From a virus (taxonomy: Duplodnaviria > Heunggongvirae > Uroviricota > Caudoviricetes): a stretch of DNA of 14,203 bases. The DNA lies in IMG/VR virus record IMGVR_UViG_2695420646_000007; one strand, given 5' to 3'. The notes under the pieces were generated by a model, which had not been told where the DNA came from, made no database searches, and was given only the letters and a program-made list of their open reading frames with translations. The position numbers and the translations under genes were made by a program. This document shows, one piece after another, positions 7,094 to 9,062 of the stretch (the first letter of the stretch is position 1; every line of letters begins with the position of its first letter).

Positions 7094-7381
7094 GCGAAAC
7101 GTTATGAGTGTGTGGGTATTCGTGCCATTGCGATGTGGTAGAGAGTGCTGAGGGCGTCATGGTTGTGTTGCGAAGACTACGTTGCACTTGAGCAGGATCT
7201 TGCAGAATTTGAGCGCGAGTTCCGTGTTGCTGATGCGACTATACCCTCGATGTAGAGGAACTTAATTAGCTGATTGTAATTCAATATGCCTACTAAGGCC
7301 GGTTGGGTATGAACTAGTAAAGGCTGCAAAATCCTATAGAGTGTTAACGCAACCAAAAACGTTAAGCACGGAGAAAAAAAC

Positions 7382-8134
7382 ATGGATCCTAAATTACTGT
7401 ATGCCACGTTTAAACGAAATGACGCACCAGCTTGGCGCTGCCCGAACTGTATGAATGAAACACTGGAGATTGTCGCTGATAGTTTTGTAGAAACTGATTC
7501 AAGCGCAACAACTCAGTTTAGAGATGAAGTATGGTTTGATGAGGAAATGTCGGGAGGAGTATTCAGTTGCGTGCTGCGCTGTACCCGCCAAGCCTGCCAG
7601 GAGAAGGTTGCTTTGTCTGGGCAGGTTGTTGCTGTAGAATGCTTCAATGACGAAATGACGGAGCGTTGGTATGTTTCTGGTTTCCGTCCTAAGTATTTCT
7701 ATCCACCACTTCCTCTATTCCTGTTTCCTGAAAAGTGCCCTGAAGATATAGCTGATCTCTTGGCGGAAGTATCAGCTCTGATCCCCTCGCACCCAGCTTC
7801 AGCGGTGAACACCATGAGAACCATACTGGAGATGATGCTTGATAGTCTTGATGTACCAAGAGAGAAAACAGTTAAAGGCAAGATAATACGTCTTTCTACG
7901 CATGAAAGAATCACATATTATTCAGATAAACTGGGACCAAATAAAGATGCATTCATGGCGTTAAAGTGGTTGGGGAATCACGGCAGTCATGGAGGGATTA
8001 AAGTCACAAGGTCCTCTATTAATGATGCCTGCATTCTCATTGGTCATTTGATTGACTTCTTATTCTTAGAAAGCCCGGATGTAACTATTCATATTGAACG
8101 GATAAACAACGTGTATGCACCCAAAAAGGAGTAA
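7382..8134 (+). CDS. Hypothetical protein with N-terminal Cys-rich zinc-ribbon-like region and a C-terminal DUF4145-like (possibly HEPN-related) region
   Basis: 250 aa; GGAG 8 nt upstream. N-terminus has CPNC...C...C...C. C-terminal segment ...AFMALKWLGNHGSHGG...INDACILIGHLIDFLF resembles the conserved R/K-x-x-G-N-x-x-x-H core I recall for DUF4145. Sits after a 290-bp non-coding gap following ren. Function unknown. Confidence 0.6.
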   Translation: MDPKLLYATFKRNDAPAWRCPNCMNETLEIVADSFVETDSSATTQFRDEVWFDEEMSGGVFSCVLRCTRQACQEKVALSGQVVAVECFNDEMTERWYVSGFRPKYFYPPLPLFLFPEKCPEDIADLLAEVSALIPSHPASAVNTMRTILEMMLDSLDVPREKTVKGKIIRLSTHERITYYSDKLGPNKDAFMALKWLGNHGSHGGIKVTRSSINDACILIGHLIDFLFLESPDVTIHIERINNVYAPKKE

Positions 8135-8145
8135 AACGTAACGCC

Positions 8146-8394
8146 ATGTCGAAGCAGAATATTGCCGCTAAAACACAAGAAGAGCGCGAGAAGGTTAACG
8201 TTGACCTTGCTGTCTCCTGAGTTACCTACAAAGAGCGCCTTAATATACCGGTTATTGCCGAAGCGGTGATGCGTGAGCAGCCTGAGCATTTGCGGGACTA
8301 TTTTTTGGAGCGGCCACGACATTACCGCGAGCAGAGCATCGCGCTGCCCAAGGCATCCACTCCTCGACATCTTAAGCAGGAAGGTGAAAAATGA
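8146..8394 (+). pseudogene. Small reading frame (82 codons) interrupted by an in-frame TGA at 8218..8220; stop overlaps the next gene's start
   Basis: ATG 8146 ... TGA(8218) ... continuing open in the same frame to TGA 8392..8394, which overlaps the ATG at 8391. Translation [81 protein letters not shown]. An internal GTG/ATG at 8266/8269 could express only the distal 41-42 codons. Confidence 0.3.
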
Positions 8395-8873
8395 TAAGTG
8401 CAGAAGGACTGCAGCGGTTACTTAATTTATCGGAGCCTCCATCTGATGAACTGATTGATGTTTATCTTCAATTCTGCATGATTTTTCCTAGGGTCGAGCA
8501 AAGTTTTTTTGGTGGCTTTGCTAAGGGGGAAGACAGTTTAAATTATGCGCGAACGTTACTTGACGCCGGGATAAAGGTGCCCAACGAACTTTTTCACGAT
8601 TTTAAGCAGAGATACATTTTGAACGGGGATGCGCAGGAAAGACTTGACGCCCTCTGTGTCGGTCGAGAGAGAGATAGGCGGGGAATAGTTAATGGACTTC
8701 AAAATGACGCAGCAACAGATCTAAACACCATGTCTACAGTATTAAAGATAGTTATAAGGATAAGAAATAACCTTTTCCACGGAAATAAAGAAGCTTATCT
8801 TTTTGTTGATTCTCAAGAGCAAGCGCAACTATTGAGGTGGTGCGTGAGATTTCTCCAAGGATTATTAAATTAA
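8391..8873 (+). CDS. Hypothetical 160-aa protein with a candidate HEPN-type R-x(4-6)-H motif
   Basis: ORF track 160 aa; start overlaps the upstream frame's stop. [18 protein letters not shown] contains R-x4-H and R-x6-H spacing typical of HEPN RNase motifs. The motif is short, so this is a weak call. Confidence 0.55.
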
Positions 8874-9062
8874 TCTACCTTTGATTTTCCATAATCAACC
8901 AGCAATAATAATGTCACCGGAGCCTGAACAACATCGGTGACTTCTGCGCTAAACGGGGACGTTTATGCGCACATACAATCTAAACTCTCTTTTGCTGTCA
9001 CAGATGCAGAAATGCACCTGCGATTTTTTGCATCCAGCGTTTGACCTCTGCGGAGGTGAATC

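Follow-up and report, generated by a model that had tools for sequence, protein, structure and literature searches.

Two candidate single-gene HEPN defense modules and a decayed theta gene in the cargo slot of a defective lambdoid prophage

Introduction

How a single HEPN ribonuclease (RNase) senses a phage structural protein and aborts infection was worked out only in 2026, for RAZR and HepS. RAZR, the ring-activated zinc-finger RNase also called PD-T7-4, binds ring-forming phage proteins through its zinc-finger domain, whereupon its DUF4145 domain (R146, H154) cleaves RNA (Zhang et al., Nature 2026, PMC13017515; Vassallo et al. 2022, PMC9519451). These two residues, located 8 positions apart, are both essential (PMC13017515). 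HepS is the HEPN Solo defense element of the Salmonella prophage Gifsy-1 (Sargen et al., Nature 2026, PMC13043305). BxaP and Ishtar are other validated DUF4145 defense proteins (PMC10799925; bioRxiv 10.64898/2026.07.06.735840), and for stand-alone HEPN proteins within BREX/Pgl and restriction-modification (R-M) operons a role as back-up suicide effectors has been described (PMC3710099; PMC12839542). RiboL-PSP, DUF4209, and DUF3644 are likewise HEPN families, and approximately 20% of DUF4145 members are without the conserved motif (PMC3710099). Here, a locus comparable to these systems was analyzed in the 14,203-nucleotide IMG/VR record IMGVR_UViG_2695420646_000007 (the window), where it lies between ren and the nin block.

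The window covers the early-right half of a defective DLP12-like/lambdoid prophage of Escherichia coli. A preliminary description, made from the sequence alone, had placed there an insertion of about 2 kb with three reading frames foreign to the phage backbone, for which a role as HEPN RNase and in defense was suggested. Two of these frames are indeed full-length genes, encoding proteins of 250 and 160 residues; the middle one, not recognized at that time, is one gene, a homologue of the DNA polymerase III theta subunit whose frame is broken by a TGA codon. We propose, with a probability of about 0.55, that the two full-length genes are independent single-gene HEPN abortive-infection modules sharing a cargo slot with one dead gene. 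Single-gene HEPN defense cargo of prophages is of a known kind, and both families are outside current defense catalogues. The locus supplies two more candidates from families missed by current defense-finding tools, one of them with a substituted catalytic residue.

The 250-Residue Zinc-Ribbon/DUF4145 Protein

The first full-length gene is located at 7382-8134 on the plus strand. The Cys-rich N-terminus and the DUF4145-like C-terminus noticed previously in its product are both confirmed, by a CxxC...Cx4C arrangement of cysteines and by a match of Pfam DUF4145 to residues 132-216 with E = 2e-11, above the cutoff. The protein comprises a Cys4 zinc-ribbon beta domain (residues ~1-107), a conserved Pro-rich linker (~106-120), and a DUF4145/HEPN domain (~121-250). 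The predicted structure shows this architecture, with a beta-rich N-terminal domain in the AlphaFold2 (AF2) model and a HEPN fold in the C-terminal DUF4145 domain.

A profile search returned more than 246 clusters of full-length relatives, each of ~253 residues, from Enterobacterales to Thermodesulfovibrionales and Vibrio. Among 38 diverse members, the residues W18, C20, P21, C23, C67, and C72 of the Cys4 zinc ribbon, F106, P108, and L110 of the linker, and R146, E150, R176, K195, G198, N199, G201, S202, and H203 of the DUF4145 domain are invariant. Lys195 is thus always found 8 residues before His203 (K-x7-H). The homologues are solo genes whose location varies. In Serratia one lies in a P2-like prophage, where it separates tail genes S and V beside a pair of AAA_15/21 and HNH genes; in Pantoea one directly follows an integrase; and in Serratia plymuthica one is near umuDC-like genes. 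RefSeq names some identical copies "DUF8608 domain-containing protein", and a newer family model may cover the zinc-ribbon/DUF4145 family.

Comparison with RAZR displays the same domain order, from a Cys4 zinc ribbon at the N-terminus through a conserved linker to a DUF4145/HEPN domain at the C-terminus, together with an invariant His that has a basic residue 8 positions upstream. Both are solo genes on mobile elements, and the zinc-ribbon region varies more than the rest of the protein. The present protein is nevertheless longer (~250 residues, family ~253, against ~219 for RAZR), with a zinc-ribbon domain larger by ~40 residues, and it is Lys rather than Arg that is invariant at position -8, as judged by the published spacing in RAZR. 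No RAZR chain was among the structural or sequence matches of the 250-residue protein, which apparently belongs to a ~253-residue family separate from RAZR/PD-T7-4. In BxaP and Ishtar, DUF4145/HEPN is the presumed effector, as it would be here, whereas their DUF4145 domain is N-terminal, without a preceding zinc ribbon, and fused to a HEAT-like or beta-rich C-terminal domain.

The 160-Residue Protein Family

The second full-length gene (8391-8873, plus strand), the start of which overlaps the stop of the theta frame (ATGA), encodes a predicted all-helical protein of an uncurated family, a candidate minimal HEPN RNase. No match was found in Pfam, NCBIfam, PADLOC, or PDB; the only library match was phrog_27260, of unassigned function in that library, at E = 4.6e-93. 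Close relatives (74-82% identity) occur only in Enterobacteriaceae, and an exhaustive profile search gathered 174 representatives at 50% identity, nearly all of 150-190 residues. Seven columns are invariant in 74 sequences of 20-40% identity, namely E36, R74, R123, R125, N127, H130, and K133, and the family consensus reads RLRNNLFHGxK (motif RxRNNLFHGxK). The R-x(4-6)-H spacing pointed out in the preliminary description holds firmly here, R125-NNLF-H130 being conserved in 74/74 aligned members and likewise in an 18-member subset. By sequence, this R-[N]-x3-H motif is the signature of HEPN RNases. Individual members also gave sub-threshold Pfam matches to RiboL-PSP-HEPN (1e-4), DUF4209 (0.0034), and DUF3644 (0.0037), as well as to the SWT1 C-terminal domain (SWT1_3rd). 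By our own estimate, three HEPN families among the four strongest Pfam matches are very unlikely to arise by chance.

Other comparisons returned little. Hidden Markov model (HMM) consensus sequences compared with Pfam gave low-complexity noise only, and neither the 250- nor the 160-residue protein had a relative among PDB sequences, whether these were searched with single sequences or with profiles. The 160-residue family profile matched no PDB chain at E <= 10, and no sequence relationship to HepS (STM14_3211, PDB 9OIJ) was detected, the presence of 9OIJ in the searched sequences being unconfirmed. Profile-profile comparison (hhalign) of the 160-residue protein with the DUF4145 domain showed no similarity. 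A link to pEK499_p136 is unsupported, because there is no match to the protein in GenBank phages and the plasmid matches are distant rhizobial ones only.

The genomic context of distant members is that of defense. In Methylotenera the family gene lies within hsdM-hsdS-x-[gene]-Schlafen/AlbA2-hsdR, and in Gastranaerophilales within pglX-[gene]-pglZ-brxL. Defense domains are enriched among 66 immediate neighbors, with MmeI/Eco57I/N6 methylases, PglZ, TIR, Mrr, RhuM, and YhcG recurring. The preliminary description asked whether homologous gene pairs recur in defense islands; at the loci inspected, the 160-residue family does so singly, in BREX and type I R-M operons, and the pair was not found outside E. 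coli. Between genera, the ratio of nonsynonymous to synonymous substitution rates (dN/dS) is 0.10-0.16 for the 160-residue gene and 0.12 for the DUF4145 gene, implying that both are real genes under constraint. In an alphaproteobacterial metagenome-assembled genome (L007, 2092-5498), a family gene overlaps the end of a full-length polA (DNA polymerase I) by 4 bp, so that the family adjoins a replication protein other than theta here; this is one locus and may be a coincidence.

The 160-residue protein resembles HepS in being small and stand-alone, in its R-x4-H motif, in having no obligatory partner, and in its position in an accessory region between replication and late-regulation genes of a lambdoid prophage. 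It differs in the place of the motif (125-130 against 100-105 in HepS), and many enteric copies adjoin theta. Distant family members occupy the positions of the HEPN proteins known from BREX and R-M loci (pglX-[gene]-pglZ-brxL and hsdS-x-[gene]-Schlafen-hsdR), yet the family matches no curated Pfam HEPN model above threshold.

The Theta Pseudogene and Its Slot

Between the two genes lies a theta (HolE/HOT-like) pseudogene (8146-8394, plus strand), marked "internal stop" in RefSeq. Pfam DNA_pol3_theta matches its C-terminal fragment (E = 2.6e-8), and NCBIfam PRK10969 matches when the stop is bridged (E = 1.4e-27; 95.4 bits against a cutoff of 97). The frame is broken at codon 25 by TGA (8218-8220), in place of a glycine that is invariant in ten intact prophage homologues (motif ASGVAYKER); intact prophage relatives are 65-79% identical to this gene. 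According to RefSeq, theta is a pseudogene in all E. coli copies inspected, and the copy in NC101 is frameshifted too. We take the gene to be comparable to HOT, the phage P1 homologue of theta (HolE): it is likewise a phage-borne theta homologue, yet it bears a nonsense codon at the invariant Gly25.

The three genes occur together in ~52-56 of 5426 complete E. coli genomes (~1%), with at least 97.5% identity. At the loci inspected outside E. coli, the DUF4145 gene and the 160-residue gene were never found together: the latter occurs without the former in Salmonella, Klebsiella, Enterobacter, and all distant loci, and DUF4145 homologues occur without the 160-residue gene. Treatment of the cassette as a single three-gene system was therefore rejected, co-occurrence being confined to E. 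coli.

A smaller unit deserved consideration because of repeated adjacency. In Salmonella, Klebsiella, and Enterobacter, as well as in metagenomic relatives of 41% and 33% identity, theta immediately precedes the 160-residue gene, often overlapping its start codon. It is also located within ~400 bp of the family gene in 12 of 35 distant IMG/VR loci, on the downstream side in three of these 12. Theta and the 160-residue protein might hence form a dedicated two-gene system, in which a theta-like antitoxin, sensor, or replisome adaptor is combined with a HEPN-like effector and of which the E. coli copy is broken. This pairing was downgraded after a reciprocal census of the best 80 (L110-L189) of at least 568 phage theta loci in IMG/VR. 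The 160-residue family was a neighbor in 0/80, and the gene just 3' of theta, typically at a gap of -3 to +20 bp, belonged to at least 24 unrelated families among 76 loci, which fits a shared insertion slot. Furthermore, theta was present in 0/37 non-enteric loci of the family, where the gene stands alone in R-M or BREX operons, and theta is dead in every E. coli copy inspected while the 160-residue gene is usually intact, which is hard to square with an antitoxin. A dedicated pair consequently seems quite improbable.

From the unrelated families 3' of theta and the absence of the 160-residue family in the census, theta would be the conserved left anchor of a hypervariable slot, with the 160-residue family as one occupant. 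The comparison points to a hypervariable cargo slot that is anchored by theta in enteric temperate phages and of which no description was found in the literature searched. Such a variable slot, 5' of the nin genes, is a place to mine prophage cargo.

Two further loci were observed. In E. coli A3024 (locus L046, 1647-3280), the place of ren and the DUF4145 gene is taken by genes for PRTase-CE and NADAR-family proteins; the recombination junction falls within theta, and the 160-residue gene is intact. In an Enterobacter mori prophage (L005, 6875-9645), a 633-residue NACHT-domain protein and a DinI homologue are located directly 3' of the 160-residue homologue, a defense-type occupant in the same region.

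Proposed Mechanism and Alternatives

In the proposed explanation, the 250-residue protein would work like RAZR. On binding a protein made by the phage, its variable Cys4 zinc-ribbon domain would activate the DUF4145/HEPN domain at the C-terminus, and cleavage of cellular and phage RNA by the latter would stop translation. By analogy, sensing of the trigger is thus assigned to the zinc ribbon and RNA cleavage to HEPN. The 160-residue protein would be a minimal stand-alone RNase with an active site formed from R125-x4-H130, aided by R123, N127, K133, R74, and E36, and would serve as a suicide effector, either solo or as a back-up, like HepS of Gifsy-1 and the HEPN proteins in BREX/R-M loci. The conservation of its motif and its defense-island context are observed directly; its fold, activity, and trigger are proposed by analogy. 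The theta homologue is probably a decayed HOT-like gene, intact copies of which would form the left anchor of the exchange slot in related prophages.

Several points weigh against this explanation. The 250-residue protein has no canonical Rx4-6H: in KWLGNHGSH no Arg is found 5-7 residues before H203, and with an invariant Lys in place of Arg the catalytic chemistry is uncertain. The PADLOC PD-T7-4 model gave no match at E <= 10 to this protein and matched 1/14 relatives, at E = 0.026. A check of both proteins in PADLOC, proposed in the preliminary description, was negative, PADLOC 2.0 recognizing neither the proteins nor their families. Structure prediction of the 160-residue protein reached a predicted local distance difference test (pLDDT) score of only 46, too low for fold comparison. 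The suggested HEPN and defense role therefore stands in part, through the modeled HEPN fold of the 250-residue protein and the motif and defense-island contexts of the 160-residue protein; it falls short where PADLOC matches and a canonical Rx4-6H in DUF4145 are concerned.

Expression raises a further point of this kind. A consensus scan found no promoter-like site in the non-coding spacer 5' of the DUF4145 gene (7094-7381), although this spacer is presumed to hold the gene's own promoter, and the genes point in the same direction as O, P, ren, and nin of the early rightward operon, which may limit their expression to the time after prophage induction. The same facts would suit genes that serve the phage lytic program, in host-RNA shut-off, regulation, or counter-defense, expressed from pR after induction, rather than defense by the lysogen. 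The 250-residue family is classed by PHROGs as "DNA binding protein", and the PRTase-CE and NADAR occupants in A3024 could be counter-defense genes, both of which suit a lytic role too. Nevertheless, both genes often have homologues in chromosomal settings outside phages that are typical of defense (type I R-M, BREX, beside an AAA and HNH pair), the 288-bp spacer differs from the tight packing of early genes, and the functional analogues HepS and RAZR are defense proteins (PMC13043305, PMC13017515). A lytic role is thus considered unlikely.

The state of the element is a last point against the proposal. The prophage is defective, cut off after Q, and theta is dead. In addition, the 160-residue gene is split in strain A11, cut short in NC101, and broken in several IMG/VR copies, and the DUF4145 gene is cut short in E. 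coli D4, D9, and NCTC9038. The cassette might therefore be an inert relic within a decaying cryptic prophage, its open reading frames (ORFs) intact only for want of time to decay. The E. coli copies are too alike, at the identity given above, to inform on selection within the species. On the other hand, the two ORFs retain their full length in this prophage and in the majority of ~50 genomes, and the dN/dS of 0.10-0.16 between genera speaks for constraint. We regard an inert cassette as a minority possibility, slightly less remote than a lytic role. It concerns present activity and not gene identity, and is compatible with the two genes being HEPN abortive-infection modules.

A broader proposal is made more tentatively, at somewhat less than even odds. 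The 160-residue proteins may constitute an uncurated RxRNNLFHGxK family of minimal RNase-like anti-phage effectors, which numbers at least 174 clusters at 50% identity and is modeled in none of Pfam, NCBIfam, and PADLOC. They may act as embedded back-up effectors in BREX and type I R-M loci and be carried as exchangeable cargo of an undescribed theta-anchored slot in enteric lambdoid prophages, and the ~253-residue family may be a RAZR-like sensor-RNase with a Lys-His, not Arg-His, pair. If true, the two families would extend the annotation of ~1% of E. coli genomes and of many BREX/R-M islands, and would provide small, tractable proteins for studying how HEPN enzymes stay silent and are then triggered.

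Cargo Boundaries and Prophage Setting

Over the segment in question, the window shares 99.9% identity with prophages in the chromosomes of ABW_A33 and other strains, and 99.6% with the IAI1 prophage. The gene order is exo/bet/gam, a kil-like gene, a low-GC (guanine-cytosine) pair of HipA-like and DUF3037 genes, a cI-like repressor, cro/YdaT-like, O, P, and ren, followed 3' of the cargo by ybcN(ninB)-ninE-ybcO-rusA-ylcG and then Q. An insertion between ren (6800-7093; PHROG Ren-like match, E = 1.3e-41) and the nin block, where ybcN/NinB begins at 9063, was correctly located at the outset, and its AT-rich composition is also borne out (GC 0.40-0.48 against 0.50-0.55 in the flanks).

The spacer had been put at about 290 bp and measures 288 bp. 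Its sole ORFs are unsupported ones on the minus strand. It accompanies the DUF4145 gene in 48 E. coli genomes and is not found in GenBank phages, save for a 44-nt match at chance level. An imperfect palindrome, GTTAACG-N10-CGTTAAG, is situated at 7346-7372, 10-35 bp 5' of the DUF4145 start codon, and could be part of an operator or promoter.

At the right end, the extent first assigned to the insertion (7094-9062) requires correction. From ~8877 onward, the sequence is similar to that of lambdoid phages (82, HK639, phi80, and many others). The nin-block leader (8881-8941, plus strand) comprises promoter-like hexamers at 8881-8886 and 8904-8909, which the consensus scan also found as a promoter-like site (8881-8909), and the inverted repeat GTCACCG-N15-CGGTGAC, with arms at 8913-8919 and 8935-8941. 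It is followed by a 33-codon ORF (8965-9066, plus strand), the orf33 of phage 82, which is also annotated in RefSeq E. coli genomes and the stop of which overlaps the GTG start of ybcN/ninB. The stretches 8881-8909, 8913-8941, and 8965-9066 match phage 82 (X92588) base for base, where they are a putative -35/-10, a "possible regulator-binding site", and orf33, and the phi80 counterpart of the repeat is annotated IR4. By our own estimate, about two inverted repeats of 7 bp with a short spacer are expected by chance per 2 kb, and therefore only conservation gives the repeat its meaning. Its sequence and position were given correctly in the preliminary description; it belongs to the conserved leader and not to the cassette. 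The cargo therefore ends at ~8876, a few bases past the stop of the 160-residue gene, and the remaining ~185 bp (8877-9062) are conserved lambdoid backbone.

On this comparison, 7094 to ~8876 is accessory cargo, lodged in a variable slot that separates the replication genes from the nin block. The ren-to-nin junction had been named as a cargo site, and this is upheld: of the E. coli records having the same nin leader, which number more than 3000, only 47 contain the cassette, and other occupants of the site include the PRTase-CE and NADAR pair, a NACHT protein, and, in phi80, an N15 gp45-like gene. The cargo shows no sign of transposition, since it is not bordered by direct or inverted repeats, and Rfam has no match in the window. 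The small RNA svsR of an NC101 prophage (PMC12803456) maps to the cI gene and not to the cargo region.

Following Q (10538-10930), the prophage breaks off abruptly, without phage lysis and late genes, and it is this loss that marks the element as defective. In their place, 11086-13844 holds a lipocalin gene (minus strand), a 2-thiouracil-desulfurase/DUF1722 gene, and a low-GC AraC-family gene; near-identical prophages of other strains continue instead with a porin gene and essD-rrrD-rzpD-bor. Lastly, a two-gene insert on the minus strand (1791-3442, GC 0.32-0.39) was observed between the kil/cIII side and the cI-like repressor. Its genes, which overlap, encode a 282-residue protein weakly similar to HipA_2/HipA_C kinases (E = 1e-6) and a 268-residue DUF3037 protein. 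The insert occupies the position of lambda rexAB and may be a further moron or defense pair.

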